Source of the DNA: a virus | Lineage: Duplodnaviria; Caudoviricetes | DNA length: 64,000 nucleotides | Strand: one strand, 5' to 3' | Virus record (IMG/VR): IMGVR_UViG_3300033498_000048 | Coordinates: 241,783-305,782 of that record | Shown here: positions 6,665 through 52,464 of the stretch, one piece after another | How positions within the stretch are numbered: position 1 is the first letter of the stretch | How the letters are laid out: each line of letters opens with the position of its first letter | The notes under the pieces: model-generated | The model's input: only the letters and a program-made list of their open reading frames with translations | What the model was told of the DNA's origin: nothing | Database searches by the model: none | Made by a program: the position numbers and the translations under genes

Positions 6665-6838
6665 ATGGAAGGACAATGGCTTGGAGGTAAGGGTTCAACA
6701 ACTAGACCTATGCAAGTAAACCGACAACAGTTTGAAGATAACTGGAACAAGATTTTCAACAAGAAACTGGATAATGCGAATAAATTAATTCCAGTAAATG
6801 AAACCATAGTGGAGATTGTAACAAATGACACAGTATAA
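6665..6838 (+). CDS. Small conserved-looking phage protein
   Basis: Not in track; MEGQWLGGKGSTTRPMQVNRQQFEDNWNKIF..., 57 aa, AAGGGG RBS. Confidence 0.55.
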   Translation: MEGQWLGGKGSTTRPMQVNRQQFEDNWNKIFNKKLDNANKLIPVNETIVEIVTNDTV

Positions 6839-7076
6839 AACATTTAAATCCTTTTGTGAGTCTGTAACAGCGTTGCCTATCTATTTTCTATGTGAAAAGT
6901 GTAAAGAATCAGGTATTCAGGAGTCTGATGAATTTGATATGGAGACTAAAACCTCTAGGCAAGAATATATTACAAAGGGACAAGATAAAATATTTTTAAA
7001 GAAAGTTTGTTATGAATGCAAATCTGAAAGTGGTGTAGACGAGAATTATTTAAAAGGGATACAATATAGTGGTTAA
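6825..7076 (+). CDS. Zinc-ribbon-like protein with capsid-targeting-like leader
   Basis: N-term YKTFKSFCE; CEKC...CYEC pairs. Confidence 0.55.
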   Translation: MTQYKTFKSFCESVTALPIYFLCEKCKESGIQESDEFDMETKTSRQEYITKGQDKIFLKKVCYECKSESGVDENYLKGIQYSG

Positions 7077-7671
7077 TGTTAAAAACATTAGGGTAAAATC
7101 ATTTAATGAATATTTAATGGAAAACAGTCCAATAATTAGAACTGAGTTAGACAAAGAAATACATTCTAACACAGCAACAAGCCAATTAAATGATATTCCA
7201 ATTCCATCAATGAAAGATGCAAAAAGTGGAGATTATAAAAAAAGCAGAATTAAAATAAATGGACTAATCATTGATATTGAAAATCCGTATGGTTCAGTTA
7301 GAAAAGGCATTAGCTCAAATGGCGAATCGTGGGAAATTACGTTATCAGATAATTATGGTGAAATTAAGGGGTATGATGCTGCTGATGGAGATTATTTAGA
7401 TATTTTCATTCGTCCACATATGACACAAAAACAAGCAGATAATTTAAATGTCATTTATGTGATAGACCAATTGGATCCAACTACACATGGATTTGATGAA
7501 CATAAAGTCGTATTTGGGTATGAAACAATCGAGGAATCTAAACGTGCATATCTAGCCAATTATAAATCAAATTGGACTGGATTAGGATATATCACTCCAT
7601 TAACTATGACGATGTTTAAATATTGGATTAAAAATGAAGACTTAACACAACCATTAGTTTGGGGTAAATAA
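7069..7671 (+). CDS. Inorganic pyrophosphatase-like (InPase) domain protein, putative internal virion protein
   Basis: IDIENPYGSVRKG...W...NYGEIKG..AADGDYLDIF...VIDQ...FDEHKVVFGY...AYLANY is the polyvalent-protein InPase pattern; KSFNEYLME leader. Confidence 0.8.
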   Translation: MVNVKNIRVKSFNEYLMENSPIIRTELDKEIHSNTATSQLNDIPIPSMKDAKSGDYKKSRIKINGLIIDIENPYGSVRKGISSNGESWEITLSDNYGEIKGYDAADGDYLDIFIRPHMTQKQADNLNVIYVIDQLDPTTHGFDEHKVVFGYETIEESKRAYLANYKSNWTGLGYITPLTMTMFKYWIKNEDLTQPLVWGK

Positions 7672-8052
7672 ATGTTTAAATCATTCAATGACTTCATACG
7701 ATTAGAAGATACGAGCTTTCATTCAATAATGGCAAGGAACATAAAACCCACCAAACAAAAAACAGTTGATTTTGATGATATTAGCACTGGTTCAACCGTT
7801 AGATTAGTTGATATTGGAAATTACTTTTTATTAACTGGATTAGAAACACCTCCAGAAAATAGGGGTAAAGGTGGTGCTAAAAAAGTTATGCAACAGGCAA
7901 TTCAATATGCGATTGATAACGAAAAGAACATAGAATTATCGGTTATTCCTGACGATGATACAGACACTGAAACCTTAATAAAATTGTATTCTAGTTTTGG
8001 ATTTAGAAAAACAGGACAACCACATAACCATATGCGTTATATTACAATATGA
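7672..8052 (+). CDS. GNAT acetyltransferase, putative internal virion protein
   Basis: PPENRGKGGAKKVMQQAI (acetyl-CoA motif A), LIKLYSSFGF; MFKSFNDFIRLE leader. Confidence 0.8.
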   Translation: MFKSFNDFIRLEDTSFHSIMARNIKPTKQKTVDFDDISTGSTVRLVDIGNYFLLTGLETPPENRGKGGAKKVMQQAIQYAIDNEKNIELSVIPDDDTDTETLIKLYSSFGFRKTGQPHNHMRYITI

Positions 8053-8465
8053 AATCATTTAAAGAATATACAAACAATCCGATATTATATCACGGAACAA
8101 CATCAAACTTCGATTTTGATAAAGGTTTAATGGCAGGTGGAAATAAACAAACAACGTCCAACTTTAATGCCAGTAATGGTGAAATTTGGCTAACTTCAAA
8201 TAGGGAAGTTGCGTTTGAGTATGCTATGATTGCATGGAAAACACTACAAAACTTTTCATTAACGCCGATTTTGATACAAGTTGATATTGATGTTAGCTTA
8301 TCAGCAGACCAACCTATAGAACATGACCAAGTAGCGTTTTGTTTTGAATTAGATGTTATTCCAAAAAGTAAACTAAAGATGGTAAAGTTGACTCAAGCAG
8401 AATTAGCTAATTTCAAAAAACGATATGACCGAGAACTTAAAAATGGAAAATCAAAATTCAATTGA
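8049..8465 (+). CDS. ADP-ribosyltransferase-fold protein, putative internal virion protein
   Basis: ILYHGT...IWLTSNREVAFEYA pattern of ART-fold enzymes; MKSFKEY leader. Confidence 0.6.
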   Translation: MKSFKEYTNNPILYHGTTSNFDFDKGLMAGGNKQTTSNFNASNGEIWLTSNREVAFEYAMIAWKTLQNFSLTPILIQVDIDVSLSADQPIEHDQVAFCFELDVIPKSKLKMVKLTQAELANFKKRYDRELKNGKSKFN

Positions 8466-8520
8466 TTTTCGTATGGTGTTTGTGTTATAGTACATAAAAC
8501 ATCATACTAATCACAACATT

Positions 8521-8754
8521 ATGAAATCAAAACTAACCCAAGCTAAAGAATTATTTGACACAGGAAATTTGAATGGATGTTTAAAGATAGTTAAGACTTT
8601 TAGGTTAAGTTTAACTAAAGATGATTTGAAGGTGGTTTCCAGAACATATGAAATGCTGACAGGAAACCACAATTTTTACAATTCATTGGGCTTTGATGTG
8701 GACACTGAATTAGCTAAAGCTAACCAAATTTTGACCACAGTATTTAAATTGTGA
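8521..8754 (+). CDS. Hypothetical protein
   Basis: 77 aa downstream of TTGATT-N18-TATAGT promoter-like element. Confidence 0.55.
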   Translation: MKSKLTQAKELFDTGNLNGCLKIVKTFRLSLTKDDLKVVSRTYEMLTGNHNFYNSLGFDVDTELAKANQILTTVFKL

Positions 8755-8991
8755 TTATTTGTCAACTTTATTTTCAATGAACTTTTGTACAGCTTTAGGT
8801 GCGAATGCTGCTAATAAGAACCCAAATGTCAAATATAATCCAACATCTGAATTGCTAGTGATGTGAACAATCGACATTTTCAAGGTTAAATATCCGAAAA
8901 CGATTGATGCGATTAATGAAATAAACGACATCAGCCTCATTGAACTGTGGTTTCCGTTATCTTCTTGGAAGAATCCAATCTTTCTATACAT
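8755..8991 (-). CDS. Small two-TM membrane protein (holin-like)
   Basis: SSMRLMSF followed by two hydrophobic helices and a charged C-terminus. Confidence 0.55.
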   Translation of the reverse strand: MYRKIGFFQEDNGNHSSMRLMSFISLIASIVFGYLTLKMSIVHITSNSDVGLYLTFGFLLAAFAPKAVQKFIENKVDK

Positions 8992-9037
8992 AAATAGAGT
9001 TCCGTTAATATATTATATAATTTTATTATTTATTATA

Positions 9038-10237
9038 TTAACTATTTAACTTTTGAAAAAATTGCAACAAATCTTCTTGTAATACTGAACATGGAATAGG
9101 ATATTCAATATTATCAAGAAAATTGAGTTTAATATCTTGATTACAATCTGGTATAACTAAATCGAATAGTTTTCCAGCCAATACATAATCGAAATATTTA
9201 AATTCCAATGTATAATCAATCCTACCTTTACGCAATAGGGCATCATCTAACTTAGTGTGGAAGTTGCTAGTCATTATAACTATAACATCTTCTTTACTAT
9301 ACAATCCGTCCAACACATTCAATAGTGTAGATAAACTAACTGAATTGGTTAGACCAGCATTAGTTGAATTAATGTCCCGTTTTAATACACTATCACACAC
9401 GGCATCAATGTCTTCTAACAAAACAATTGAATCAGATGGAATATCAATAAACGCTGTAATAATTGACGAGTCAGTTAATGTTTTCAAATTGATTGAATAA
9501 ATTGATTTTTTATATAATGATGCTAATGCTAACACTAAACTCGTTTTACCAGTTCCAGGTGGACCAGTAAACAAATATCCCCTTTTATATAAAATTCCTC
9601 TATCTAAGTACCATTGTTTATTAATGTAGAAGTGTTCTATATCATCAAGCAACGATTGCTTATCATTATCTGGTAATACAATTGATTTAATATTGCGATA
9701 GTTCCTAGATGCAATTATTCGCCATTCAGTAACATATGTGTGTATTGAAACTTGATTTCGACTTTTAGTTAAAACAGCAGCAACGAAATCATCAACTATA
9801 TTTGGATCCCTACGAAATAGAAAATACATTGTTATATCTTCAGGAGCTTTAAACATTCCAGTAGTTCGATTCGCCAATACTTTATAAAACAAAACTGGAC
9901 GGTGTTTATACCAAAACCAATGTAACCCAGTTGAAAATGTAATATTACCAACATTTCCATGATAACCTGAAACATAATAATCATACAATTGAAGCCTTCT
10001 TGTATTAGATAGTAATCTATTTTTTTCAATCCACAAACAAATATCATCAAACATATCGGTATTATTCCTAACCAACACTTCAACAGATAAAAAGTAAATT
10101 ACCATTCGTTTTATTTGTGTTGGAATACCTTTTAACACATAAATCGCATATCCACATAGTGTAGCAACAACAGCACCAGAACTAAACATATTTGTTTGTA
10201 CTTGATAGACTATCCATTCATAAACTTGTATCACCAT
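9038..10237 (-). CDS. BCS1-like AAA+ ATPase with N-terminal TM anchor
   Basis: Hydrophobic N-term; WYLDRGILYKRGYLFTGPPGTGKTS (Walker A), IVLLEDID (Walker B), LSTLLNVLDG, LDDALLRKGRID. Confidence 0.9.
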   Translation of the reverse strand: MVIQVYEWIVYQVQTNMFSSGAVVATLCGYAIYVLKGIPTQIKRMVIYFLSVEVLVRNNTDMFDDICLWIEKNRLLSNTRRLQLYDYYVSGYHGNVGNITFSTGLHWFWYKHRPVLFYKVLANRTTGMFKAPEDITMYFLFRRDPNIVDDFVAAVLTKSRNQVSIHTYVTEWRIIASRNYRNIKSIVLPDNDKQSLLDDIEHFYINKQWYLDRGILYKRGYLFTGPPGTGKTSLVLALASLYKKSIYSINLKTLTDSSIITAFIDIPSDSIVLLEDIDAVCDSVLKRDINSTNAGLTNSVSLSTLLNVLDGLYSKEDVIVIMTSNFHTKLDDALLRKGRIDYTLEFKYFDYVLAGKLFDLVIPDCNQDIKLNFLDNIEYPIPCSVLQEDLLQFFQKLNS

Positions 10238-10791
10238 TAGTAATTCCGTTTCTTTATTTTAATAATATCAATATCATTACCACACGATACGATGTGATTT
10301 CCAGCTGCTAATATTGCCATTTTTAATTTATCATTTGTATTCAATTGTGTTTCAATATTTGTTAATACAAATAAAGCTCCTTCGGCAGTGATACCTCCAC
10401 TACCAATTGCAGTGTAGGGTGAATTTAGTTCACATACTGACCAATCATCTTGGATTTCAAATATCTTTGACCGATAACAAATTATATAGTTACCACAACG
10501 CCCTTTACTATCGTTTTCAGTATATTTGTGTAATTCCAAACACCTGCGAATTTCTGGAATTAAATCTTGTATCATATAATCAATTGGGTTGCCTCTTGTG
10601 TCTTTTGGTAGTTCTAAATGGTGGCTAATAATTTGTGTTGCTCTTAATGAACCCATAGAGCCTATTAACATTTTTCCTATTTTAAATACCTTTGAATGAA
10701 CTAAAGTTGACCCAACATGACCATTTGATATTAGTCGGTCTCCACCTAAATATAAGTGTGTTTTGTCCATTAATGCTGCTATACACGTCAT
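10237..10791 (-). CDS. HslV/proteasome-beta-like Ntn-hydrolase peptidase
   Basis: MTCIAA (Thr nucleophile after Met removal), LGGDR, SKVF, TAIGSGG. Confidence 0.8.
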   Translation of the reverse strand: MTCIAALMDKTHLYLGGDRLISNGHVGSTLVHSKVFKIGKMLIGSMGSLRATQIISHHLELPKDTRGNPIDYMIQDLIPEIRRCLELHKYTENDSKGRCGNYIICYRSKIFEIQDDWSVCELNSPYTAIGSGGITAEGALFVLTNIETQLNTNDKLKMAILAAGNHIVSCGNDIDIIKIKKRNY

Positions 10792-10820
10792 ATAATCTCC
10801 TTATAATTGTTTTAAAATAA

Positions 10821-10875
10821 TAGCACTTGGAACAGTCTTATAATTAACTAACTGTTCCAAGTGCTAACCTGTTGA
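10821..10875. repeat. Palindromic repeat family, single unit (locus 1)
   Basis: Perfect 16-bp IR tagcacttggaacagt (10821-10836) / actgttccaagtgcta (10851-10866), then acctgttga. Confidence 0.9.
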
Positions 10876-10878
10876 TAT

Positions 10879-12012
10879 TTACTTAATTAGTCCACGAATT
10901 AAAGATTCAAACTTACGAATTTCTAGCTTTCTCAAATAAGCTGGAATATCTGTAATAGCACCCTTTTGATATGCAAAAACTATTCCAGATAAGTTTTGAT
11001 TATCTTTCATTTTTAAGCCAAGTTCTTTTCCAGTTAATGTTTTAGTGTATTCAATAAGCGTGTCTAGTTTCTGTTGTAATCGCTTGTACGCTGTTTTTAT
11101 GGTTGAGTGTAGCACTGTATGCTCTTTGTACTTATCGAGCGATAGGAACGATTTGTGTGAGTTTGTACGCACTATTTCACACATTCTACGGAAATTGTCT
11201 TTATCTATTTGTGATTTTCGTTTGATGTATTCCTCATTTGATATGAATTTAGAAGTCCGCAACAGATTAATATTGTCGTATTGTGGACTCTTTATTTTCA
11301 ACCGATTAAAATTAGAATCACACGCAACATAACCTTCCATCTTAATTGGGTCAACCTCATTTAATTCCAATAAAATATCATTCAAGGTTGATTTTTTACC
11401 AGTTGCACATTCCCATGAAATACACAATTCACGTTTAGCACGTTCAATTGACACCTCTTTAAAAGTTTTAAGATTGCGAACACCAATAAGGGTAATGTTA
11501 GGTTCTGATACTTTAACCAAAAAGTCTTCTGATGGACGTTCCATTTCAAACATATAACAATGGTCTGTAAACTTTGGTAATTCGTATTTTTTCAACTTCC
11601 AAACTTTCCAGAAATAATCATTCATTGTAATATCTAAACCCTTAATTTGTCCAGACGCATCAGGCATACCTTTAGATGCTACATTCCATTTTCCATCATA
11701 CCAATACAATGTCATCAATGAACCATCTAACTTTTTCCAATATGTACAATCATCAAAATCGAAAGTTTGTTTTCCCATTGGATTATAATCACTAAACCTA
11801 GTAAACGGAAATGATACAACCTTCATTGTATTAGTATCAATTATTAATCCCCTACAATTATTAGTTATGTCATTCTTTGGTGTTTCCAATTGGTCATACA
11901 TCAATTGTACTAAATTTGGATATAATATATGTCTACGCATTTTTAATGAATATGTAGCAACTAATGTTTCCAATGAATTTTTAATAATGTAATCAATAAC
12001 GTTTAACATCAT
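10879..12012 (-). CDS. rnlA: RNA ligase, T4 Rnl1 family
   Basis: CRGLIID, FPFTRF, KKLDGSL (motif I KxDG), MFEM, EGYV, LKIKS. Confidence 0.85.
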   Translation of the reverse strand: MMLNVIDYIIKNSLETLVATYSLKMRRHILYPNLVQLMYDQLETPKNDITNNCRGLIIDTNTMKVVSFPFTRFSDYNPMGKQTFDFDDCTYWKKLDGSLMTLYWYDGKWNVASKGMPDASGQIKGLDITMNDYFWKVWKLKKYELPKFTDHCYMFEMERPSEDFLVKVSEPNITLIGVRNLKTFKEVSIERAKRELCISWECATGKKSTLNDILLELNEVDPIKMEGYVACDSNFNRLKIKSPQYDNINLLRTSKFISNEEYIKRKSQIDKDNFRRMCEIVRTNSHKSFLSLDKYKEHTVLHSTIKTAYKRLQQKLDTLIEYTKTLTGKELGLKMKDNQNLSGIVFAYQKGAITDIPAYLRKLEIRKFESLIRGLIK

Positions 12013-12184
12013 AACCTCGTTTAGTTTGTTTAGGAAGGAACAGCACCTAAGCTATTACAGTCTTTGTAAAATATCTCAATGCGTTTTTTATTTGCATAAT
12101 CATCTGCAACGTATAATAACAATACTACACACAAATTAGTTCTACCAACTCTTGTTTTCTATATACCACATAACACCTCTTTAA

Positions 12185-12409: not shown

Positions 12410-12438
12410 AATGTAATTCCACGAATATCAATTTAGTA

Positions 12439-12467: not shown

Positions 12468-13046
12468 TCAATAAGTTAGCATTAAGTAATTAATAATAGC
12501 GTCCAAGTGCTATCTTATTGATATTATTAGTGTATGACTACTCCAACTAAATCAACGACTTAGCACTTGCATAGAGTATTAGTTATATAACCGTTCTAAA
12601 TGCTAACCTATTGATTTTGTTACATATCACCTAAAATATTAAGAATCAACAAGTTAGCACTTGTAGCCATTAGGTAATTAATAACACCATCCAAGTGCTA
12701 AGTCATTGATTTTGTATAATTGACAAGAATGTATGGATTTAACCGTAAATCAACAAGATAGCACTTGCAGCTTGGTATTAATTATATAACTGTTGCAAGT
12801 GCTAACTTATTGATTTTGTTATTGGCTATTAAAACAATTAAGAATCAAGTGGTTAGCACCTATTGGTATCAAGTGGTTACTATTGTCAATAAATTGAGTA
12901 AAATGACCTAGTAATTACAGTTACACTACAAACAATAGGTTAGCACTTGCAGTGTGTTATTAATTACTTAATGGCTACAAGTGCTAACTTATTGTTTTAT
13001 ATACAACACATAAACACACCTAAATCAATGACTTAGCACTTGGACG
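12468..13046. repeat. Palindromic repeat array (locus 2): five two-armed units plus two half-sites
   Basis: Units at 12468-12521, 12552-12614, 12646-12709, 12750-12813, 12932-12995; halves at 12845 and 13025; period about 85-105 bp. Confidence 0.95.
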
Positions 13047-13069
13047 GATTAGCTGAAATTGGTAAACAA

Positions 13070-13077
13070 CATAAATA
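13070..13077 (+). promoter_or_regulatory. Late promoter variant CATAAATA
   Basis: 30 bp upstream of ATG 13108. Confidence 0.5.
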
Positions 13078-13107: not shown

Positions 13108-13687
13108 ATGTTACTAAGTTTTAATGAATATTTGTTATCTGAGGCATACATTAACCTGATAGGTGATGACGCTAAAAAACAAAACTACGTTGATGCTGTT
13201 TGGAATATGTTACAAATATCTTATGAGAGGATTGGTGGAATACATGATTATGGGTTTAAAGATAAACAGAATATGATTACCAATATAAATTTTTGGAAAT
13301 AGCTACTAAAGATGGTAAACCTGTAGCAGTTGCAATGTATAAAGATTCTGGAGGCAGAAAAAATTAGTTGCGTATGGAACTGATAAGTCCACAGTAGGAA
13401 AAGCAAAGATAGTTGATATTATTAAGGCAGATATGACCAGAAGTTATATGGAACTATCTGGTGCAACTGTGACAATATTAATGAATAACATTGAGTGGAA
13501 TCAATTGAAAGATTATACATTCACTCCAGAGCAAGCTGAAAAATTGCTAGGAAAGGATATTACACCAATAAGTCAACTACCATCAATTCCATAAGATGCG
13601 AAATTAACGTTGGCATTGTTTGAATATGGGTACATAAGAAAGATTGGTAGTGATTTACATTTTAAAGTTATGTTTGGTAAAATCTAG
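13108..13687 (+). pseudogene. Interrupted putative internal virion protein
   Basis: MLLSFNEYLLSE leader; adding one A at about 13299 and one in the A-run 13358-13363 gives a continuous reading (...FWK-IATKDGKPVAVAMYKDSGGRK-KLVAYGTD...YIRKIG...KVMFGKI) with one in-frame TAA at 13592. Confidence 0.65.
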
Positions 13688-15413: not shown

Positions 15414-15421
15414 TATAAATA
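15414..15421 (+). promoter_or_regulatory. T4 late promoter TATAAATA
   Basis: Exact match 23 bp upstream of 15445. Confidence 0.7.
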
Positions 15422-15444: not shown

Positions 15445-15828
15445 ATGATGTTATTTGAACAATTTTTATATGAGAATGTTGGAAGTGTCAATCTGGCAAC
15501 TGACCTTTTTTATATGGCTAGAAACTCTGCTACCATTGCACACAAGCAACACTTAAATTCCAAATCTAGGTCAGAACACGAAGCACTCCAAGAATATTAT
15601 GATGGAATAATCACATTAACTGATAGGCTTATGGAATGTTTCATTCAAAGATTTGGTAGAATGTGCGACTCTCCAGAAACGATTGACTTTTTGTCTGTTG
15701 AGGGGTTTGCTAAATGGTTGGAAACATATCGCTACGATATTACGGATGTTCCACATATCCAAACTATTATAGATGAAATGCTCATTTTATGTGATTCGGT
15801 ATTATATAAGCTTAGATACCTAAATTGA
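15445..15828 (+). CDS. Ferritin/Dps-like four-helix protein (DUF5856-like) with capsid-targeting-like leader
   Basis: HKQHLNSKSRSEHEALQEYYDGIITLTDRLME...G; C-term LYKLRYL; MLFEQFLYE leader. Confidence 0.7.
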   Translation: MMLFEQFLYENVGSVNLATDLFYMARNSATIAHKQHLNSKSRSEHEALQEYYDGIITLTDRLMECFIQRFGRMCDSPETIDFLSVEGFAKWLETYRYDITDVPHIQTIIDEMLILCDSVLYKLRYLN

Positions 15829-31040: not shown

Positions 31041-32435
31041 TTAACTTAAAATTGTACCTTGTTTGATTCCTAGTTCAATGGCTAACACTTCATCAAGAGT
31101 ATTGGCTTTGTTTTTATCGGGTCTTGATTCATCCCATCTAGGATGTAATAGTCCATATCCATCCTTTGACACTGATATACCAGAACATTCAACTTGTAAT
31201 ATGGTATCAATTAAGGAATCCATTTCATTAGTTATTTGTGTCATTAATTTTTCATTAATACCTGCTGCTGCTGCAACTAATTTACCATCTTCAGTTTCAA
31301 CTATAACAGAACTAATAACGTGTTCATTTTTAGTTCCCTTTGTTCCATATTTAAAACCTTTGATTTTCATATCAACAACAAAATCAAGTTTGAATTTAAT
31401 TTGATACGATGGTTTTCCATCTTTCCAAGCACCTGACAACCCTTTTAATATTGTACCTTCTTTCCCACTAGAAATCTTGTCTTGGAAATCAGCATTAGCT
31501 TCTTCCAACGATTTAACAACTTTTGAGTCAACTAATTTCAACTTAGGTGAATTTACTCTTGTTACAATGTCAGACAAAAGTTCAAATCGTTCTGAATAAG
31601 GTGTGGAACTATATGTCTTGTCATATTCGTCTAAAGTTATAATATCCCAACAAACATATACGATTTTAGATTGGGCATCTGAAATAGACATTCCATATTC
31701 TAATTCAAATTCAGAAATCTCTTTTACAACTGAAATTCCAGATGTAATCTTTTTATTAATTGAAATCACACTTGCAATTATTCCATTTGAAGTGTAACGT
31801 GAAATCCCTTCGATTATCAATTCACCATTAAGCACGATGTTATCAACAAACTTTGTTAAAAAATCGAATTGATTGCCTATTAGGGTTTCTTCGCCTCCAC
31901 GACTTTCAATCAATACATCGTTAGGTGTTACAATACAATTTCCATATCGTCCATCTATTTTCTCTTGACTGACAGCTCCTTGTTTGTCGTTTTTAATAAG
32001 GTTTAGAATCTTTTTAACATTGTATGGAATTGCACCCATATATGGAGTTTCTTCTATTAAATCTTTCCAAACCTTATTTACTATTGATACACCAACACCA
32101 CATTTCAAATCACCTTTAATAATCAATTCCAGCACCTGAGCATCGTCTGAACTAACAGATGCTAATAGTGTGTGAAGATGTGCTAGTGCTTCATTTCCAG
32201 TCTTTTGTCTTGAACTTAAAACATTTAATTCAGACATAGCATATTTTAATGAAATTGGATTAGTTAAGGTTCCAGCAACATATTCTGGAACCTTTCTAAT
32301 ATAAAACTTAATCCGTGGACTTAAGGCTAAATAAACAACTTCTTTAAGTAGCTCATTATTAACTTCAAGCTGAACCCTAGCAAGTTTTTTCTTAATTGAA
32401 CTTATCGACTTTAACTCTTTAAATATTTGTAACAT
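31041..32435 (-). CDS. gp30: ATP-dependent DNA ligase gp30
   Basis: QEKIDGRY (KxDG), LNGEL, EGTILK, IKFK, LHPRW, RPDK. Confidence 0.95.
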   Translation of the reverse strand: MLQIFKELKSISSIKKKLARVQLEVNNELLKEVVYLALSPRIKFYIRKVPEYVAGTLTNPISLKYAMSELNVLSSRQKTGNEALAHLHTLLASVSSDDAQVLELIIKGDLKCGVGVSIVNKVWKDLIEETPYMGAIPYNVKKILNLIKNDKQGAVSQEKIDGRYGNCIVTPNDVLIESRGGEETLIGNQFDFLTKFVDNIVLNGELIIEGISRYTSNGIIASVISINKKITSGISVVKEISEFELEYGMSISDAQSKIVYVCWDIITLDEYDKTYSSTPYSERFELLSDIVTRVNSPKLKLVDSKVVKSLEEANADFQDKISSGKEGTILKGLSGAWKDGKPSYQIKFKLDFVVDMKIKGFKYGTKGTKNEHVISSVIVETEDGKLVAAAAGINEKLMTQITNEMDSLIDTILQVECSGISVSKDGYGLLHPRWDESRPDKNKANTLDEVLAIELGIKQGTILS

Positions 32436-36510: not shown

Positions 36511-36822
36511 TTAGGTGTTATAGTTAGATTCAATTTCAGCTAAGGCTTTTTTCATTTGCCGTTTAATTGCAGGAGTGCAATTTGGTTGATATTTGATAAC
36601 AGTTTGTTGTAATACTTTTAATTGTTCTATTACTTTGTCATCGGTAATATCAGGATTCACTAAAAAGTATTCAAATTGTCCTGAAGCATCATCAAATAAG
36701 AATGAATCCAACTCACCTGTTGATAAAGTTTCAGATTTTAGTATTGAATTTATCTTTTCAACTGACATTCCAGGTTTTATAATGGTTTCAGATTCACTTA
36801 AGAATTGTCCAAATGTTTTCAT
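36511..36822 (-). CDS. Putative internal virion protein
   Basis: MKTFGQFLSES leader closely resembles T4 IP capsid-targeting sequences. Confidence 0.7.
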   Translation of the reverse strand: MKTFGQFLSESETIIKPGMSVEKINSILKSETLSTGELDSFLFDDASGQFEYFLVNPDITDDKVIEQLKVLQQTVIKYQPNCTPAIKRQMKKALAEIESNYNT

Positions 36823-36831
36823 GTTTATTCC

Positions 36832-37533
36832 TTATTTGTTATAAAATGGGTTATCGTCAATTTCACTTAAAGGGTTTTCTTTAAGCATACTTTTAACCAT
36901 GTCTAATATCTTTGTATCCAAATGGTTTTTTAACCAAGGGTTAGATGTCATATTTATAGACGAGTCAACATTCATATCCATCAACTTTTGTATTTTTTTA
37001 TTGGCTTCTTGTCCCAATTCGTTAATGATAACATCGTCTAACTTTTTAACACCTTGATAAATTGCATTAGAAATATCATTAAACGAATCAGCTCGTGATA
37101 ACCAAGACATTCTTCTTGAAAATTCACGTTCAGCTTTCCCAGTTTCAGTGTTAATAGACCATTGTGGAACTGAACCATTATTTATTCTACGCAATATTTC
37201 AACTCGGTCTTTTTGAACTTTAACAGCGTTTTCCCATATTGTTGGATAATCACGTCTTAATTCAGATATATCATCTTGTTGGACTAATGCAATAATAGCT
37301 TGCATTTTATCGAAAATTATTTTATCAATTTCAACCTTTTCAGGTGATTCTTGATATATGTCTTGTTTTATTTTATTGATTTTTTTATGTAAACTGGGAT
37401 TACCTCCAGCTAAGATGTTTCCATCATGGTCAACATATATTGACCCACCTCTGCCCATTCGTTTCCAAGTTCCACCAGATAATGCCTTTTGGTCAGCCTC
37501 TGACAAAACCATAAAATCTTTAATGCTTATCAT
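36832..37533 (-). CDS. Putative internal virion protein
   Basis: MISIKDFMVLSEA leader; GTW...GSIYVDHDGNILAG motif. Confidence 0.6.
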   Translation of the reverse strand: MISIKDFMVLSEADQKALSGGTWKRMGRGGSIYVDHDGNILAGGNPSLHKKINKIKQDIYQESPEKVEIDKIIFDKMQAIIALVQQDDISELRRDYPTIWENAVKVQKDRVEILRRINNGSVPQWSINTETGKAEREFSRRMSWLSRADSFNDISNAIYQGVKKLDDVIINELGQEANKKIQKLMDMNVDSSINMTSNPWLKNHLDTKILDMVKSMLKENPLSEIDDNPFYNK

Positions 37534-37668
37534 ATTAATTTATCCTATATTATGGTTGGTTTTGTTGTATTTATTATATTTGAATACTAGGCTATAGAGT
37601 CATTTATTACTAATGGTCCAGTTTCTTTTCGTATCATCATGGACATTAGATTCAACTTAGATACGACT

Positions 37669-39593: not shown

Positions 39594-40277
39594 TCAACCA
39601 ACACCAATAAGGTTTTGAACTGGGTCAATGATTACTAATTCCTTTGTGCTTGGACGTATCATAAAATTATCACTATGTAAATCACTCATAAAGTTTTTAA
39701 ACAAAGGCTCGATTAATCGCAAAGCTTTTATTAAATTATCATCTGTAATTCTGGATTTAAGTTTCAAACGTCTAGTTGGGTTTGCAAATTGTTGTCTAAT
39801 ATCAAGATACAAGTCATTTAAGTTTCTGTAGCTATTAAATGGGTCAAAAAAACCCAATGATTTAAACATATTCCATACAAATTTAGCATCTTCATGGAAT
39901 AACGGCATTAAACGTTCTACTACCATGACCAGCATATATTTTTCTTGTGTTGGTTGTATCAATGTTCTATATTTTAAAAAGTCAATATCATCTTCTGTTA
40001 ATTCTGAATTGTCATACATCTTATAGGTATAAACTTTTGGAAAATATGGATTATTTTCGTGATTAACACACAATCTTAAAAATTGAACAGAAGCATCATT
40101 CTCACCTGTTACATTAACAACCTTTATAATCTTGTTAGCATCTTTAGTGTGAGCATATACCAAGGCTTGAACTCCAGACCCTAATAGCTTTTTATCTTTC
40201 ATTATACCATTGAATTTTGTATCAGATTTAGGGAGTTGTAATTTAACTTCCCTAATATAGTTTTGATAGGACAACAT
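39594..40277 (-). CDS. Ser/Thr-type protein kinase, putative internal virion protein
   Basis: LLGSGVQALVY (Gly loop), IIKV, PYFPKVY, VVERL, DLHSDNFM, VIIDP; MLSYQNYIRE leader; CATAAATA at 40375-40382 (minus). Confidence 0.85.
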   Translation of the reverse strand: MLSYQNYIREVKLQLPKSDTKFNGIMKDKKLLGSGVQALVYAHTKDANKIIKVVNVTGENDASVQFLRLCVNHENNPYFPKVYTYKMYDNSELTEDDIDFLKYRTLIQPTQEKYMLVMVVERLMPLFHEDAKFVWNMFKSLGFFDPFNSYRNLNDLYLDIRQQFANPTRRLKLKSRITDDNLIKALRLIEPLFKNFMSDLHSDNFMIRPSTKELVIIDPVQNLIGVG

Positions 40278-40298: not shown

Positions 40299-40651
40299 GA
40301 GTTAGCACTTGCGATAGGTATATAATTAACAACACTGTTTCCAAGTGCTAACTCGTTGATTTAATTATAGTAAATATTTATGGTAATGGAATAAATAGGT
40401 TAGCACTTGGAACGGTTATACAATTAACTAACACCTGCAAGTGCTAACCTATTGATTCTTAGTAATTGACAATGATTGTAACTTAACCAACTATCAATGA
40501 CTTAGCACTTAGACACATTAGGTAATTACTAACAATGCCCAAGTGCTAACGCATTGATTTAATTGAGTTTAGTGAATGTTATTATAATCAACAAGTTAGC
40601 ACTTGGAACGGTTATATAATTAAGACCACACTGCAAGTGCTAACTTATTGA
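40299..40651. repeat. Palindromic repeat array (locus 5), four units
   Basis: Units ending 40359, 40455, 40557, 40651. Confidence 0.95.
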
Positions 40652-40685
40652 TTCTTATACACAACTTTACATAATAAGGAACAAA

Positions 40686-40835
40686 ATGAACATAATATAT
40701 TTAATGTGGGTTATTCACAATGTAATTATTCATCCATTAATGATGCTTATGTCTGTTAGTAAGGCTAACGCATTACACGATGCGAATGCAATTTGGGCTT
40801 TTAAATTGAACACGAAGGTAATCAACGATGCTTAA
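40686..40835 (+). CDS. Small hypothetical protein
   Basis: Not in track; AAGGA RBS; MNIIYLMWVIHNVIIHPLMM..., 49 aa. Confidence 0.5.
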   Translation: MNIIYLMWVIHNVIIHPLMMLMSVSKANALHDANAIWAFKLNTKVINDA

Positions 40836-41453
40836 CTTTAAACAGTTTTGTTTATTAGAATCTACATTAAGTGATAATGAAATTATTGAATTGGGAAACC
40901 GAATAAGAAATACTTTTAAAACAAATGATGTTGAAATGAACTATAATTTATTATCAACATTCATATCTTAATATTGGAAATAGATGTCCAAGTTTTTTCA
41001 TTAAACACTAAGAAAAAAGTTGTGAAAACTAATGTCACATTTGGAAATGTTCAAATTGAAAATCAATCATCGCTGAGTGAAAAACGATTTATTGAATTGG
41101 CTGGAATGGTAACTGATTTATTGAGTAAGTTTCAATGTGAATATAAAAAGGCATTATCTGGAAAATTAAAATTCGTATTCAAACCATCATCCGAACAAAA
41201 GGCAAAAGCAACTTACAAATCAGAGCTTGATGAAATATGGATAAGCAATTCAACAGAAACTTTAAAATTATTTACAAAAGAGTTATATGGATTGCCAAAT
41301 TGGTTTAATTCAAGTTACATAACATCTAAGTATTCGGTTAGTGCTGGATTCGCAGATGAAGAAAATTGGGCTGAATGTTTCGCAATTGCTTTCTTTGGTC
41401 AATCAATTCATCCCAGATTATACAAATTGGCAAAATGTAATAAACAAATTTAA
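40828..41453 (+). pseudogene. Interrupted internal-protein gene with zincin-like remnant
   Basis: MLNFKQFCLLE leader ORF stops at 40971; downstream frame (40974-41453) has ATY...DEIWI and S.Y...EENWAECFA but no HExxH. Confidence 0.5.
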
Positions 41454-41477
41454 AATAGGCTTAGGTTGTTTCTACGT

Positions 41478-41710
41478 CCAAGTGCTAATTCATTGTCAAT
41501 TACTATAATCAACAAGTTAGCACTTACAGCTTGGTCTTAATTATATAACTGTTCCAAGTGCTAAGTCATTGATAGTTAGTAATTGACATAAATAGTAACT
41601 TAACCAACTATCAATGACTTAGCACTTGGTCATTGTTAGTAATTACCTAATGTGTCTAAGTGCTAACACATTGATTTAATTGAGTATAATATTAACAAGT
41701 TAGCACTTAG
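41478..41710. repeat. Palindromic repeat array (locus 6)
   Basis: Half 41478; units 41509-41572, 41611-41674; half 41692. Confidence 0.95.
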
Positions 41711-46468: not shown

Positions 46469-46498
46469 ATTAACCTTTAAGTTGGTAGGTTGTTAGAC

Positions 46499-47436: not shown

Positions 47437-47458
47437 CTAACCTAAAAATGTATGAGGC

Positions 47459-47488
47459 ATTATAGTTTAAGTTGCAACTCAGTGTCAA
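47459..47488 (-). promoter_or_regulatory. sigma70-type early promoter
   Basis: TTGACA-N18-TATAAT. Confidence 0.65.
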
Positions 47489-47490
47489 TA

Positions 47491-47498
47491 CATAAATA
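47491..47498 (+). promoter_or_regulatory. Late promoter variant CATAAATA
   Basis: 28 bp upstream of 47527. Confidence 0.5.
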
Positions 47499-47526
47499 AA
47501 AATATACCAAAACTAAAGATATTTTT

Positions 47527-49695
47527 ATGTACTTACCACCATCAGCAAAATCTACGAATTTTAAATGGGAATCACAAATTCTAAGTTCAATTGATAATGA
47601 CCCACTTGACAACCTAGTTACATTATCAATGCCATGTGAATCAATATATGATGAAAAAGGTCATACAATTACCATAGTGAATAGCGATTACCCTCCAGTA
47701 ATCAATATTGGAAACAGTCGAGATGGAACAGGCTGCTTGAGTTTAATTGGTGATGGTGTGAATACCAATTCAACATATTGTTATTTAATTGGAAATGAAT
47801 TTTTAATTGATGATAGTGTAAATTCTTGTATTGAGTTTTGGACAAAGTTTAATGCTATTCCAGCTAACACTAAACTAATATCAAATCAGAGTGGTGATTA
47901 TACCAATTGGAGTGTAGAAGTAAATGGAACAAACAATATTCAATTAGTATGTGGTAATTCAACTGGTAATACTCAAATTGTTATATTCGATTCAAATACA
48001 TTAGAATTAAATATCTGGAAACACCACGCCTTTATTAAAATAGACAAAGCATGGAAATACTTTTTAAATGGAATTGAACAACGATATTCACAATATACGA
48101 TTAATATGGGATATGTTCCAGTATTACAATCAAATGTTGTATTGAATATGAATTTCAATTCAAAGATTTCTGATGATAGTGGAAAAGCAATAACTGTAAT
48201 AGGTAACTCACAATTATCAACTTCAATAAAAAAGTATGGGAATAGTTCATTGTTTCTAAATGGAGGATATATCACAACACAATCAATGGACATAGTTCAA
48301 AATGAGGACTTTACATTAGAGTTTTGGGTATATCCATTAAACATTTCAAGCAATACAGCATTAATAATGGGGATTGGAAATAGAAGTGGGGTAATGTTTA
48401 ATTCAGGTGGAAATATACTTTGGTTAGGTGAAGACATTACAACAACTGGAACATTGATTATTAATAGCTGGAATCATATTGCAATATCTAGGACAACCAA
48501 CATAATAACACTGTTTTTAAATGGGAATGCAATTGGTACTGGAACATCAACCCAAGCACAAAGCTTAAATTCATTTGGAAACAATGTGTATGGTCAACAA
48601 TTAAATGGTTATTTAGATGATGTTAGGATAACGAGAGGACTTGGTAAATACAATACTAATTTCACACCAATAGAACTTCAATATCCAGTAACTAGCACAT
48701 ATAGATTAAATATTGGAAAACCAAGTCCAACATATACGGTAAAGTATGTGACATTGGGTTTAAATATGGAAGGTGTTGATGGTTCAACATCAATTATTGA
48801 CTCAACTGGAAAAACAATTTCAGTTGCAGGAAACACTAACATCAAAACAAGTAAATTTAAATATGGAACAAGCTCTGTTTATTTTGATGGTAGTGGCGAT
48901 TATTTATTTGCTGATAATAAAGGAATAGCTGCATTTGGATTAAACACATTCACAGTTGAAGTATGGGTGTATTTACTATCATATGGTGGAGGTGGGTATA
49001 GTGACTATTCTGGTACAATATTTGATTCAAGAACTTCTGGTGGTGATACTGGTGGATTATTAGTAATAACAACAACATCTGGCACACTTATATTGCATAG
49101 TATAGCAACAGGTACAATTGTATTACCATTAAACACATGGGTCCATATTGCAGTTTCTAGGGATAGTGGTTATATTAGAACATTCGTAAATGGAATTAAA
49201 GATATTGAAATAACAAACACAACAAATTATACTGGAGATATGGTTACTATTGGTAATGTTGTTGATGGGAGAACTAATAACACCTATTTAAAGTTCTATG
49301 GGTATATGGATAATTTATTTGTTTTTTCTGGTATTGGTAAATACACTTCTAATTTCACTCCAACTGAGCCTATTGAGTATTTTAGACCTTTAATGTATTT
49401 GGATGATATTAGAATAACAATCAATTCAAATAGATATTTAACTAACTTTAGTTTAGATGATTCAAAAAGGTATTTATTTACAAAATCTGGAATTGTGTAT
49501 GATAAATCTGGTATTCCATCGAAACGGTTAATTCGATTGTATAATAGAAAAACTGGCAATCTTGTTAATGAAACCTTTAGTGATGAAATGACTGGAATGT
49601 GGTCATTAACTACACCATATCCAGACACTCACTTTGTAGTAGCCCATGATAATACTGGAGCAATTAATACCAGTATCATTATTGACCGTGTTTAA
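47527..49695 (+). CDS. Tail fibre / receptor-binding protein with three LamG-like domains
   Basis: Repeated F(T/C).EFW, W.H.A..R......F.NG, YLDD.RIT; SS(L/V)(F/Y)...G motifs. Confidence 0.85.
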   Translation: MYLPPSAKSTNFKWESQILSSIDNDPLDNLVTLSMPCESIYDEKGHTITIVNSDYPPVINIGNSRDGTGCLSLIGDGVNTNSTYCYLIGNEFLIDDSVNSCIEFWTKFNAIPANTKLISNQSGDYTNWSVEVNGTNNIQLVCGNSTGNTQIVIFDSNTLELNIWKHHAFIKIDKAWKYFLNGIEQRYSQYTINMGYVPVLQSNVVLNMNFNSKISDDSGKAITVIGNSQLSTSIKKYGNSSLFLNGGYITTQSMDIVQNEDFTLEFWVYPLNISSNTALIMGIGNRSGVMFNSGGNILWLGEDITTTGTLIINSWNHIAISRTTNIITLFLNGNAIGTGTSTQAQSLNSFGNNVYGQQLNGYLDDVRITRGLGKYNTNFTPIELQYPVTSTYRLNIGKPSPTYTVKYVTLGLNMEGVDGSTSIIDSTGKTISVAGNTNIKTSKFKYGTSSVYFDGSGDYLFADNKGIAAFGLNTFTVEVWVYLLSYGGGGYSDYSGTIFDSRTSGGDTGGLLVITTTSGTLILHSIATGTIVLPLNTWVHIAVSRDSGYIRTFVNGIKDIEITNTTNYTGDMVTIGNVVDGRTNNTYLKFYGYMDNLFVFSGIGKYTSNFTPTEPIEYFRPLMYLDDIRITINSNRYLTNFSLDDSKRYLFTKSGIVYDKSGIPSKRLIRLYNRKTGNLVNETFSDEMTGMWSLTTPYPDTHFVVAHDNTGAINTSIIIDRV

Positions 49696-49711
49696 GCTTA
49701 CCTTACACAAA

Positions 49712-49923
49712 TCAATAGGTTAGCACTTACAGGTGTTAGTTAATTAGTACCAGTGTCCAAGTGCTAACTCATTGATAATTCAAACAACAGACACAACTTG
49801 GCTTGTGTGATAGTGGATATTAAACTGCTAACTTAGTCTTTCAGTATAATTGACAAGAATCAACAGGTTAGCACTTGGAACAGTTATATAACTAAGACCA
49901 GTCTGCAAGTGCTAACTCATTGA
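49712..49923. repeat. Palindromic repeat array (locus 8)
   Basis: Units 49712-49775 and 49860-49923 with a degenerate site between. Confidence 0.95.
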
Positions 49924-49953
49924 TTCGTAATAATTGACAATATTGTTACACGA

Positions 49954-50751
49954 TTAACCAACACACTTTGGAACGATACAATTAGGAGTTAATTTTAGGA
50001 TTTTTACATACTCGGCTATCAACAAATTGAAGTGGAACGTGTCTAAATTGCGTTCCAAGTGGTCATACAGCGTGAAAAAATTACTTGCCATACTAACGTT
50101 GAGCTTTAGGTTTAACGAGTCATTAACAAGCGTTAATGCTGTTTGTGGAGATGTTGTAACGATGTTGTTGGATTGATTTTTAATTCCAAGTGTGTGTACA
50201 AAAATCAATCCAATTATATTAAACAATGCAACTAATAATTGAGTTCTATGTAAACCCTTAATATTGTGGTCATCATACACATCTGAAAAATATGCAAATT
50301 GTAACCAATTTAAATTACCCACCATCCAATCTATTTGAACTATAGAATCATTGTTATATTGTGGAAAACTAGAAAATATTGTTCCAGTTGTTATTTTCTT
50401 TAGGTTGATATTAATCAATTTTGAACTTGAGTTAATAACATCAGACATTTCAATTAATATTGCTTTAAGTCTTAATTGTGATTCATTTGACGTTCTTGCT
50501 CTATTATTTAACTTTTCAATTCGTTTGTATAGTTTGGTTGGATTGATGTTTAGCTTAATTGGACATAATATCGTTTCAGATATACCTAAATCAATATCTC
50601 CAGATTCTGCTTTTTTACCAGTAGAACCTAATGGAATAAAGTTAAAATTAACAATAGGAAAAATCCTATTTAATTCACAAACATATTCGTTAATGGTTGG
50701 AGATATTAATTCCAGTTTAATTGGTGGTGTGTTGTATGTGTGACCACCCAT
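49954..50751 (-). CDS. Pol-beta-superfamily nucleotidyltransferase
   Basis: LGSTGKKAESGDIDLG (GS...DxD), VQIDWMVG. Confidence 0.75.
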   Translation of the reverse strand: MGGHTYNTPPIKLELISPTINEYVCELNRIFPIVNFNFIPLGSTGKKAESGDIDLGISETILCPIKLNINPTKLYKRIEKLNNRARTSNESQLRLKAILIEMSDVINSSSKLININLKKITTGTIFSSFPQYNNDSIVQIDWMVGNLNWLQFAYFSDVYDDHNIKGLHRTQLLVALFNIIGLIFVHTLGIKNQSNNIVTTSPQTALTLVNDSLNLKLNVSMASNFFTLYDHLERNLDTFHFNLLIAEYVKILKLTPNCIVPKCVG

Positions 50752-50972
50752 AATTATTCACCTTGTTTCTTAGGTAAACGGTTTGTTCCAATGAATATCA
50801 AAATATCAATCAATGTGTAAATTAATATACCAGATACCATATTGGATAGTTCTTTAATTGATTGCGATAACAAAAAACAAAATAATATTGTCAATACTAC
50901 TAATGATATTTCTTTTTTATAAGTAATTTCCATAATTTATATAACTCTCGTAAAATATTGTTGAATCAATGT

Positions 50973-51554
50973 TCAATTCATTGTAGATTTAATATATTTT
51001 TTTGATTCAATCCACTGTTTAGTTGTCAAATCAAAAACATGAGGAACAGATTTTATTAGTACCAACGAGTGGGTACTAATAATCACTTGATTGTTTTCAG
51101 ATGCAAGTTTTAATTCTCTAGCCAATTTATATTGATTTGATAAACACAATGCTGATTCTGGTTCATCTAATAATATAACTGAATTTTCAACTGTATTTAC
51201 TATATCAACTGTAAATTGTTTTAATATTTCACCATGAGACTTCCACCTAGATAATAGTGCATTTTTTACACCAATTCCAATATCAGTACCATCTGGACTT
51301 GAATACAATTGTGCATTTTTTGTCCTAGGGTTCATCGTTTCTGTATCAAAATAATATGATTTAACGCTATTACCATCACTATTTAAAACATAGTTGATAT
51401 ATCGTTTATCATGTCGCGATAATAAGTCTAATAAAGAACTTTTACCAGTTCCCTGTCCACCGACAAATACAACCAAGTCTTGTAATTTAATGTTCAAATT
51501 GACTGGAAGACTTCGATATGGAGCTATGATTGACACCTCACTTAGAAAAATCAT
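50973..51554 (-). CDS. ABC-type (AAA_21/SMC-like) ATPase
   Basis: GGQGTGKS, SHGE signature, LLDEPESAL, ISTHS. Confidence 0.9.
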   Translation of the reverse strand: MIFLSEVSIIAPYRSLPVNLNIKLQDLVVFVGGQGTGKSSLLDLLSRHDKRYINYVLNSDGNSVKSYYFDTETMNPRTKNAQLYSSPDGTDIGIGVKNALLSRWKSHGEILKQFTVDIVNTVENSVILLDEPESALCLSNQYKLARELKLASENNQVIISTHSLVLIKSVPHVFDLTTKQWIESKKYIKSTMN

Positions 51555-51904
51555 TTTACTATCCTCAAATGTGGTCGTTTCTTTGTTTTTTGTGGTTCTA
51601 TTGGTAAATCGTTAGGTTTGAAGTGTAATCCAATATCTGGATTATCTTTATCATAAATTGCTAAGACATCTTTATTAATATCAAATTCCAAATCATAATG
51701 TTTACGATTAAATGATACTCCTATTTTGACCAATCCATCGTTGAAATTGACATACCCAACAGCATGGTCTGATAAGTTTAATGTGATATTACCATTATCA
51801 GAAAGGTAATTCAAATACGGAGGACAATTTGAACATACAATATGTGGAGTCAATTTATGTTTAATACAATACAAATACATACCTTCAACTAAAACATTTT
51901 TCAT
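51551..51904 (-). CDS. sspB: SspB-like ClpXP specificity-enhancing factor
   Basis: Y.YC...LTPHIV...GNITLNLSDHAV...VLAIY.KDN..IGL.F and C-terminal RPHLRIVK (cf. E. coli RPALRVVK). Confidence 0.85.
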   Translation of the reverse strand: MKNVLVEGMYLYCIKHKLTPHIVCSNCPPYLNYLSDNGNITLNLSDHAVGYVNFNDGLVKIGVSFNRKHYDLEFDINKDVLAIYDKDNPDIGLHFKPNDLPIEPQKTKKRPHLRIVK

Positions 51905-51920
51905 TACAATACCATCCTTA

Positions 51921-52464
51921 TTATCGTTTCATATAAATTACTACTCTAACATCGTCTTCATGGACAACTTCATTATCATCCACATACGAGCTAATCCCAT
52001 TAATTACACTATAGGCTTCTCCTGGAATACCATCATTCATATTGGTATCAATTTTGAATCCATATTTACCATACAGTTTAAATAGTCCACCATCTCCATC
52101 ACGGAATGCGAAACAATCTAATCGTTTTGCTCCATTCTCGATTGCACTTTGCATTATAGCATTTCCAGACGAACCCTGTGAACTGAATACTGATACCAAT
52201 TCATTACCATGTAAAGCATATCCAGAGCTATTGTTATCACCTAAATAACATTCCATCTCATTATACTCACGCACTGAATATATTGTTAGTGTGTCCAATC
52301 CTTTTCAGCATCACCCCTAGCAATATCATTGGACTTTATCTTACTAATTGCAGTGGCAAATGTCCTACCATCGGTTTTGTTAAAACTATCTCCACTCGTT
52401 AAAGCTTGTCCTTTTTTAAGTTCCATATCAGCAAAGTCTCTTTAATGTATTCAGAAAAACTCAT
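51921..52464 (-). pseudogene. Frameshifted GNAT-like internal-protein gene
   Basis: MSFSEYIKE leader at 52464; two one-base shortfalls (about 52440 and about 52302) link it to the track ORF with ELVSVFS...AIENGAKRLDCF...LYGKYGF. Confidence 0.6.

Follow-up and report, generated by a model that had tools for sequence, protein, structure and literature searches.

The window analyzed here is the last 64 kb (64,000 nucleotides) of the 305,782-bp virus record IMGVR_UViG_3300033498_000048 (31% G+C). Along it lie eleven genes, from position 6825 to position 52,464, which encode proteins starting with a short leader that resembles the capsid targeting sequence (CTS) of phage T4. The CTS is the N-terminal segment MKTYQEFIAE of the T4 internal proteins encoded by ipII and ipIII; this form, given in the first-pass annotation of the window, was confirmed by reading NC_000866, where the leader of ipI is MKTFKEFTS...ITE. 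All 11 N-terminal segments quoted in that annotation were found at their places, four of them on the minus strand; the coordinates given there for the minus-strand genes are their low ends, and these genes in fact start at 36822, 37533, 40277 and 52464. About 13 further leaders were found elsewhere in the genome, which brings the tagged genes to approximately 24 in total. The ends of the record share a 127-bp repeat, which is an assembly overlap, and the record therefore represents a circular or permuted genome. The tagged genes and the late boxes near them are listed in Table 1.

Table 1. Tagged genes and late boxes. Window features are in window numbering and all other genes in whole-genome numbering; the slash marks the end of the leader.
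Feature	Position	Strand	Leader or site	Remarks
Perfect late box	6621..6628	+	TATAAATA	heads unit 6665-8465 (6825, 7069, 7672, 8049)
Small conserved gene, first in unit 6665-8465	6665..6838	+	no leader	homologue in contig L090, E 2e-12
8-kDa Cys-rich, zinc-ribbon-like cargo	6825..7076	+	MTQYKTFKSFCE/S	
InPase gene	7069..7671	+	...KSFNEYLME/N	Pfam PF18823, 5e-42
GNAT acetyltransferase gene	7672..8052	+	MFKSFNDFIRLE/D	
Orphan gene	8049..8465	+	starts MKSFKEYTNN	
One-mismatch late box	13070..13077	+	CATAAATA	31 nt upstream of 13108
Leader gene	13108..13594	+	MLLSFNEYLLSE/A	two frameshifts (T5 run, A6 run)
Perfect late box	15414..15421	+	TATAAATA	upstream of 15445
DUF5856 gene	15445..15828	+	MMLFEQFLYE/N	PF19174, 5.6e-12; exact T4 register
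Leader gene, 10.5-kDa cargo	36511..36822	-	MKTFGQFLSE/S	no known family
Perfect late box	36951-36958	-		inside gene upstream of 36822
Leader gene, 25-kDa cargo	36832..37533	-	MISIKDFMVLSE/A	no known family
Variant one-mismatch late box	37568-37575	-	AATAAATA	for 37533
T7 gp0.7-like kinase gene	39594..40277	-	MLSYQNYIRE/V	PHROG 15752, 3.3e-12; exact T4 register
One-mismatch late box				for 40277
Leader gene	40828..41453	+	MLNFKQFCLLE/S	one frameshift near 40970; no family match; no box
Leader gene	51921..52464	-	MSFSEYIKE/T	two frameshifts; pieces 52464-, 52286-52426, 51921-52298
Perfect late box	52617-52624	-		for 52464
2H phosphoesterase	genome 1068-1688		MFKTFKSFIME/DGE	Pfam Acb1 29.0 bits (cut-off 27), 2_5_RNA_ligase2 27.3 bits
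SAM-lyase-family protein	genome 31798-32427			PF23780, 2e-15
Metallophosphatase stump, 54 aa	genome 54315-54479		MLSFKQYLAE/SKK	then DFVVGDIHGAF (metallophosphatase start), then stop
Second T7 0.7-like kinase, in head module	genome 192615-193301		MLTFNTFLKE	PHROG 15752, 5.5e-8
530-aa P-loop protein	genome 218717-220309			P-loop NTPase
Several further tagged proteins	elsewhere in genome			family unknown

Leader pattern and enrichment

When 23 leaders from the whole genome were aligned on the first aromatic residue, T or S was found at position 3 (17/23), F or Y at positions 4 (22/23) and 7 (23/23), I or L at position 8 (18/23) and Glu at position 10 (14/23), and most of the others had the Glu 1–8 residues later. 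The aromatics stand at residues 4 and 7 in 14 leaders, and the rest are offset by -1 to +8. Eight leaders agree with T4 in register throughout, with I/L at 8 and Glu at 10 as well (MKTFGQFLSE, MKTFKQFLGE, MLSYQNYIRE, MLSYTEFILE, MLSFKQYLAE, MLTFNTFLKE, MLKFKDYISE and MMLFEQFLYE). Among them, MKTFGQFLSE of the gene starting at 36822 is the closest to T4 MKTYQEFIAE. At the leader end, the P3 residue was I or L in 18 of 22 leaders, and Glu terminates every leader except that of the 8049 gene. The latter keeps both aromatics, which correspond to the targeting half, and lacks the I/L-x-E part.

Work with amber suppressors on T4 IPIII assigned residues 4 and 7 to targeting and residues 8 and 10 to processing, and Asp at position 10 was found to block cutting and not targeting (PMC9026906). 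The positions conserved in the leaders of the window phage (4, 7, 8 and 10) are these four mapped positions, which argues for the same device as in T4. By analogy with the T4 E10D mutant, the 8049 protein would be packaged uncut.

A genome-wide motif scan with shuffled N-termini had been set in advance as a check, and its outcome favors a real signal. The pattern [FY]xx[FY][ILMC]x(0-2)E, derived from the leader set and required to start within the first 14 residues, matched 18 of 482 open reading frames (ORFs) against about 2 expected: 1000 shuffles of residues 2–25, which keep the composition, gave 2.06 +/- 1.44 matches with a maximum of 8, and the internal rate of the motif predicts 2.4 N-terminal matches. 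As an independent probe, T4 KTYQEFIAE was scored against the N-termini without gaps using BLOSUM62. Scores of at least 22 were reached by 8 N-termini (0.56 expected) and scores of at least 18 by 14 (2.4 expected); the leader of the 36822 gene scored 27. Applied to 135 T4 ORFs (85 kb), the same probe with the threshold of 18 found solely ipI, ipII and ipIII. The pattern, shuffle and probe statistics together exclude chance.

Apart from the leader, the proteins are unrelated to each other, as had been proposed: an all-against-all BLASTP search with the cargo parts revealed only two paralogue pairs, the kinase pair and one other. The first 30 nt of the leader genes have a mean identity of just 52%, and different synonymous codons are used for Ser, Leu and Thr, which indicates that the conservation lies in the peptide. 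This bears on the idea that the leader is a DNA-level recombination handle for the swapping of cassettes, with a peptide of no role of its own, or a chance resemblance. Such an explanation would account for gene content that differs between relatives exactly at the tagged genes and for the decay of several members. However, synonymous change in the leader DNA is free, the Glu-ended junction is kept across homologues with different leaders, purifying selection at the protein level was already seen on the leaders (in small samples), and the enrichment speaks against chance; we regard this explanation as extremely improbable.

Late promoters and head genes

The perfect T4-type late box TATAAATA occurs just 45 times in the genome (both strands), and 24 of these boxes are found no more than 60 nt before an ORF start, the capsid gene included; based on this placement, the box behaves as a late promoter. 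Seven of the 24 ORFs led by the box are leader genes or heads of leader operons (Fisher p = 4e-5); when its true start is considered, the SAM-lyase gene is a further one. The claim that most of the leader genes follow late boxes was loosely right. Seven of the 11 stand behind a perfect box, counted as one in the same unit or within 160 nt, three have a box with one mismatch, and one has none. The T4 ip genes themselves, as read from NC_000866, are preceded by early-type promoters and have no late box, so a missing box is no evidence against a T4-like system. For the same reason, the frequency of the motif in early genes, which the first-pass annotation had named as a possible refutation, is not a valid test. 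A scan for sigma-70 promoters found fewer sites than in shuffled sequences and is thus uninformative on early promoters. Upstream of the SAM-lyase gene (genome ~32.4 kb, minus strand), a sigma-70-like TTGACT-17-TATAAA element overlaps a perfect late box TATAAATA, which suggests that this gene may be expressed both early and late. In addition, the half-site TTAGCACTTGGA precedes the leader genes 13108 and 40277 (window 13030–13060 and 40300–40330).

The position in the genome is also uneven. Of the 24 leader genes, 22 are found in one arc of the genome (184 kb to 2.3 kb) that comprises the head module and the window, and the remaining two are among the 301 ORFs outside it (p = 2e-8). Both associations, with late boxes and with the head arc, fit a virion role. 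They weigh against the possibility that the N-terminus serves a purpose unrelated to the head, such as a feature of the mRNA or of translation initiation in an AT-rich genome, a degron, tagging for a membrane or a chaperone, or recognition by a modifying enzyme, e.g., a radical-SAM (S-adenosylmethionine) maturase. The leader codons are indeed AT-rich, and a single radical-SAM gene is encoded at 25.5 kb. Nevertheless, shuffles that keep the composition yield about 2 matches against 18, the order of residues follows the mapped T4 positions and synonymous codons vary, so that we consider a purpose of this kind quite improbable. The maturase variant was rejected, since the single radical-SAM gene is not linked to the leader genes: it lies 6 kb from the nearest of them and more than 150 kb from most.

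The genome encodes the machinery that a CTS would need in T4. The major capsid protein is of T4 type (Pfam Gp23, PF07068, 425 bits), the prohead protease is of gp21 type (Peptidase_S77, PF03420, 131 bits), and a scaffold protein was found (PHROG 237, 3e-24). By capsid protein, the closest cultured phages are Acidovorax phage ACP17 and the group of Stenotrophomonas phage Smp14, with about 60% identity; megablast and blastn searches of two window stretches against cultured phages returned no match. The phage's own capsid protein contains FLNE/VS, which aligns with the maturation site FLTE/AE of T4 gp23; the predicted maturation site of the shell thus resembles the leader ends. The protease itself starts with MKLLRE, and in 60 relatives with MKLI[T/R/K]E, much like the LIE site that T4 gp21 has close to its N-terminus.

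The gene at the gp67/68 place, between the portal and protease genes, begins with MLLQFKDYVKKHLRE. A BLASTP search in the head modules of 80 relatives (52–58% capsid-protein identity) found no homologue of this tagged core gene. Many relatives have small genes at the gp67/68 place that start with MKTFKELREE, MKTFKDFRNG, MKKFNEFRSG or MKSFQQIRES, from which we conclude that this superfamily has long had the first half of the tag in its head core. Just downstream of the capsid gene (genome 193.3–194.8 kb, minus strand), there is a trio of paralogues with a common C-terminal EPSRVKLYDR motif. Two of them have leaders (MMKTFNQFILT...LDE and MLKFKDYISE), the third has none, and a late box precedes the first.

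Directly after the capsid gene (genome ~196–197.2 kb), there is also a 427-aa ORF similar to homing endonucleases, like segD in T4. The window additionally contains genes for a methionyl-tRNA synthetase (PF09334, 6e-125) and an ATP-dependent DNA ligase (2947–4497 and 31041–32435, respectively, both on the minus strand).

Cargo and its exchange among relatives

The functions proposed for the window cargo held to different degrees. The kinase and InPase labels are backed by matches of the sequences to their family profiles (Table 1). Several acetyltransferases of the GNAT type had been expected, and one was recovered: the 7672 protein matches several GNAT Pfam families at ~1e-4, with Acetyltransf_1 at 20.9 bits, i.e., at the threshold (cut-off 20.7). 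The InPase gene at 7069 has a GTG start, and its leader begins at residue 10.

The assignment of the 8049 protein as an ADP-ribosyltransferase (ART) was not supported. Its match to ART-PolyVal is sub-threshold (17.9 bits, cut-off 31.2), a search among 1.8 billion representative sequences yielded no real homologue, its one match being a chance similarity within a PA14 domain, and the single-sequence AlphaFold2 model, with a predicted local distance difference test score of 43, is too poor for use. Sequence searches of the PDB with the 8049 and 15445 proteins found no relative. The supposed ferritin-like protein corresponded to DUF5856 only, and no support was found for the peptidase remnant. 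The ESM Atlas gave no usable result for the cargo 36832–37533 or for that of genome 184897–185601, and a Pfam search with the pieces of broken genes and other cargo of unknown family returned no match.

Outside the window, the second kinase shares 36% identity (5e-41) with the kinase encoded at 39594–40277. The gene of the SAM-lyase-family protein has its true start at Met14, with a good ribosome-binding site. In the 2H protein, H83-x-T85 and H161-x-T163 are invariant and both motifs are intact. Its AlphaFold2 model shows residues 1–43 as disordered and residues 44–206 folded like 2H enzymes. The top Foldseek matches were all 2H proteins; Acb1 (PDB 7t26) was at rank 26, with the highest target TM-score of 0.68. 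Based on sequence and model, the two features of the Acb1 class (anti-CBASS 2H phosphodiesterases), a 2H fold and two H-x-T/S motifs, are both predicted for this protein. In T4, 57B (L093:23952–24410, annotated as RNA ligase) directly adjoins ipI (L093:23591–23878) and starts with MMEFKDFS, which has the same aromatic spacing as MKTFKEFT of IPI; the 2H/Acb1-like gene described here has a full leader. T4 57B is presumably the gene known as Acb1.

It had been proposed that the tagged genes are swappable, and the comparison with relatives bears this out: at syntenic places, leaders and cargo differ, and the cargo is diverse. In three cargo families, close homologues are tagged and distant ones are not, with different leaders at the same junction. 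Of five InPase homologues, the three closest are tagged (MKQTFKEYFDE, MNQTFEEYLAE and the internal MKIKTFKSFVSE), and two distant ones are without a leader. A 2H homologue with 61% identity starts with MLSFKQFLME/DDG, and another with 35% identity, on a 140-kb T4-type contig, starts with MQLITE/DGE behind a late box, so that the junction E/DGE is maintained while the leader changes; two distant 2H homologues have no leader. In the SAM-lyase family, 18 homologues differ widely in their N-terminal pieces (from MKTTFDEFLTE to MKKLNE), and nearly all of these pieces end with x-E ([L/I/V]-x-E) just before the conserved SSLSR. The whole family (PF23780; homologues P0008–P0024 from many uncultured phages) may be protease-trimmed head cargo.

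The 8.2-kb contig L090 is syntenic with the window at 6.5–12 kb. Its homologue of the 6825 gene (53% identity) keeps a leader, MRFRTFQAFNE/N. After the InPase gene, L090 has one 87-aa gene starting with MKSFKQHLAE, whereas the GNAT gene and the ART-like gene are found at the same place in the window. Before the InPase gene of L090, two paralogous leaderless domains of ~90 aa are inserted (L090:1127–1800). One of them is fused in frame, and the InPase leader MKIKTFKSFVSE is therefore internal in the called ORF of 324 aa. On another contig, L094, a SAM-lyase gene, a 2H gene and a small gene starting with MIKTLDEFLLE stand side by side. In relatives, full-length Metallophos genes adjoin tagged genes, and the phage described here has the 54-aa stump listed in Table 1.

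Three window genes carry frameshifts, namely 13108 (two), 40828 (one) and 52464 (two), mostly at short A/T runs. Two of the three loci were covered by independent Logan contigs from the probable source run, a microbial-mat metagenome, which agreed base for base over 40505–41560 and 49866–52600 at ~20- to 25-fold depth. These frameshifts are thus not slips of one assembler, though the underlying data are the same. In a search of sequencing runs, this metagenome was the only one listed with the DNA in full, and no RNA run was listed. Including the phosphatase stump, 4 to 5 of the ~24 members are remnants, which fits a fast turnover of the tagged set. From the sequence comparison, leaders and cargo appear to be exchangeable modules, and the set as a whole seems to turn over fast.

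The nature of the cargo also bears on what the proteins might do in the head. They could enter the prohead core as accessories of assembly or scaffolding and then be degraded by the protease and expelled, or stay as structural components, without being injected as effectors. In T4, gp22, gp67 and gp68 of the core are broken into pieces that are mostly lost (PMC9026906), and the tagged gene at the gp67/68 position and the tagged paralogue trio after the capsid gene would suit this explanation. However, the cargo is for the most part predicted to be folded enzymes whose catalytic motifs are intact (two H-x-T motifs in the 2H protein; the strong InPase match), and such enzymes have no obvious use inside the head. 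For domains from these families, injection as parts of polyvalent proteins is predicted (PMC5512222), and in T4, foreign enzymes fused to the CTS get delivered (PMC9026906). An accessory role is therefore considered unlikely.

Proposed packaging and delivery of the tagged proteins

Based on the above results, we consider it fairly probable that the leaders are working relatives of the T4 CTS and that the proteins are packaged, cleaved and ejected as in T4. This reading is built on what was observed in the genome: the motif and its enrichment, the match with the mapped T4 positions, the head genes, the modularity and the link to late promoters. The following course can be suggested from T4. The tagged protein would be made during head assembly, about half of the genes being behind a T4-type late promoter. 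The first part of the leader, with two aromatics three residues apart, would dock the protein into the prohead scaffolding core. The gp21-type S77 protease would then cut after the Glu of the leader-terminal [I/L]-x-E, and the mature protein would remain in the head beside the DNA, exit with it at infection and act early. In this way, the host would probably receive a varied set of enzymes along with the phage DNA.

Several points count against this assignment. A number of leaders are 1–8 residues off the T4 register, one is missing the I/L-x-E part, and four have a P3 residue other than I or L. The isoelectric points of the mature cargo are mixed (4.1–9.2), whereas the T4 internal proteins are uniformly basic. 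About one third of the genes lack a perfect late box, and some enzyme labels are weak (ART, GNAT at the threshold, and Acb1 versus other 2H families). Finally, the strict motif was not enriched in the head modules of the 80 relatives (3 matches versus 2.6 expected), which indicates that the strict form of the tag is restricted to this lineage.

The T4 CTS system is the nearest known counterpart. The T-even internal proteins are diverse and have only the CTS as a common feature (PMC3012670, PMC12373910, PMC9026906), and a review proposed that T4-like phages may use the CTS to load a variety of proteins (PMC9026906). The system described here shares with T4 a leader of ~10 residues with aromatics at 4 and 7, I/L at 8 and Glu at 10, a gp21-type protease, and otherwise unrelated proteins from variable genome regions that have the leader alone in common. 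It differs in the number of genes, ~24 against 3 in T4 (at least 10 kinds across the T-evens), and in the cargo: many of the tagged proteins are predicted enzymes of 10–58 kDa with mixed isoelectric points, while the T4 internal proteins are small basic inhibitors of GmrSD. Many of the genes also have late boxes, in contrast to the early-type promoters of the T4 ip genes. T4 Alt, an ADP-ribosyltransferase, offers another comparison as a head-carried enzyme that is trimmed by gp21, injected and active before phage gene expression. Unlike the proteins considered here, Alt has the short leader MELITE and not a CTS, and the ART-like gene of the window is unconfirmed; the MQLITE/DGE leader of a relative's 2H gene is similar to that of Alt.

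Two further groups of injected proteins may be considered. InPase domains of the PF18823 type are predicted to be packaged in virions and injected, and are linked to GNAT (PMC5512222). The polyvalent proteins of phages and conjugative elements (Iyer et al. 2017, PMC5512222) resemble the present set in the InPase, the GNAT beside it, the ART-PolyVal-like gene and the predicted delivery of enzymes with the DNA. They unite 2 to 15 domains in one giant polypeptide, however, whereas here each domain is separate and has its own leader. Membership in the polyvalent-protein class was therefore rejected, the InPase, GNAT and ART-like genes being separate ORFs of 126 to 200 aa. The ejection proteins of giant phages of the phiKZ/SPN3US type are similar in that many head-internal proteins are cut after Glu by a gp21-related prohead protease, which removes their propeptides, and are ejected into the host (PMC5694885, PMC7411985), and they differ in cleavage motif and lineage, no shared 10-residue N-terminal tag having been described for them.

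An arsenal of injected enzymes had been proposed for the window in the first-pass annotation. The leader match, the machinery, the diverse cargo and three of the labels (kinase, InPase and GNAT) are in agreement with it, while the ART, ferritin-like and peptidase labels were not retained. A more specific scenario, which we put forward tentatively and by analogy, is that an arsenal like that of the polyvalent proteins is split into ~20 enzymes with separate CTS tags, which would arrive with the DNA and blunt the defences and transcription of the host. The enzymes meant are the 2H/Acb1-like phosphodiesterase, the SAM-lyase-family enzyme, the T7 0.7-like kinases, the InPase and the acetyltransferase; they would act on host transcription and on defences that use signalling or depend on SAM, at a time when no phage gene has yet been read. 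Were this the case, sequence alone could be enough to predict which proteins T4-type phages inject. The comparison with the polyvalent proteins suggests two routes to one end, a giant polyvalent protein or many small tagged ones.

The principle has already been published; what sets this phage apart is the number of tagged genes (~24), the enzyme cargo and the distant jumbo lineage. A literature search, of incomplete coverage, found no paper describing natural sets of CTS-tagged enzymes.

Proteins that arrive with the DNA act before newly made phage proteins can counter a defence, and few of them are known; those of T4 are small inhibitors directed at a single nuclease family. Should the packaged proteins be those that carry this tag, a genome sequence would be enough to read off the injected proteome of uncultured T4-type phages. 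In that case, the injected set would include a 2H/Acb1-like phosphodiesterase, a SAM lyase and a T7-type kinase, classes so far known only as early-expressed counter-defence or take-over factors, and the tagged set would provide natural examples for the T4 protein-delivery platform.

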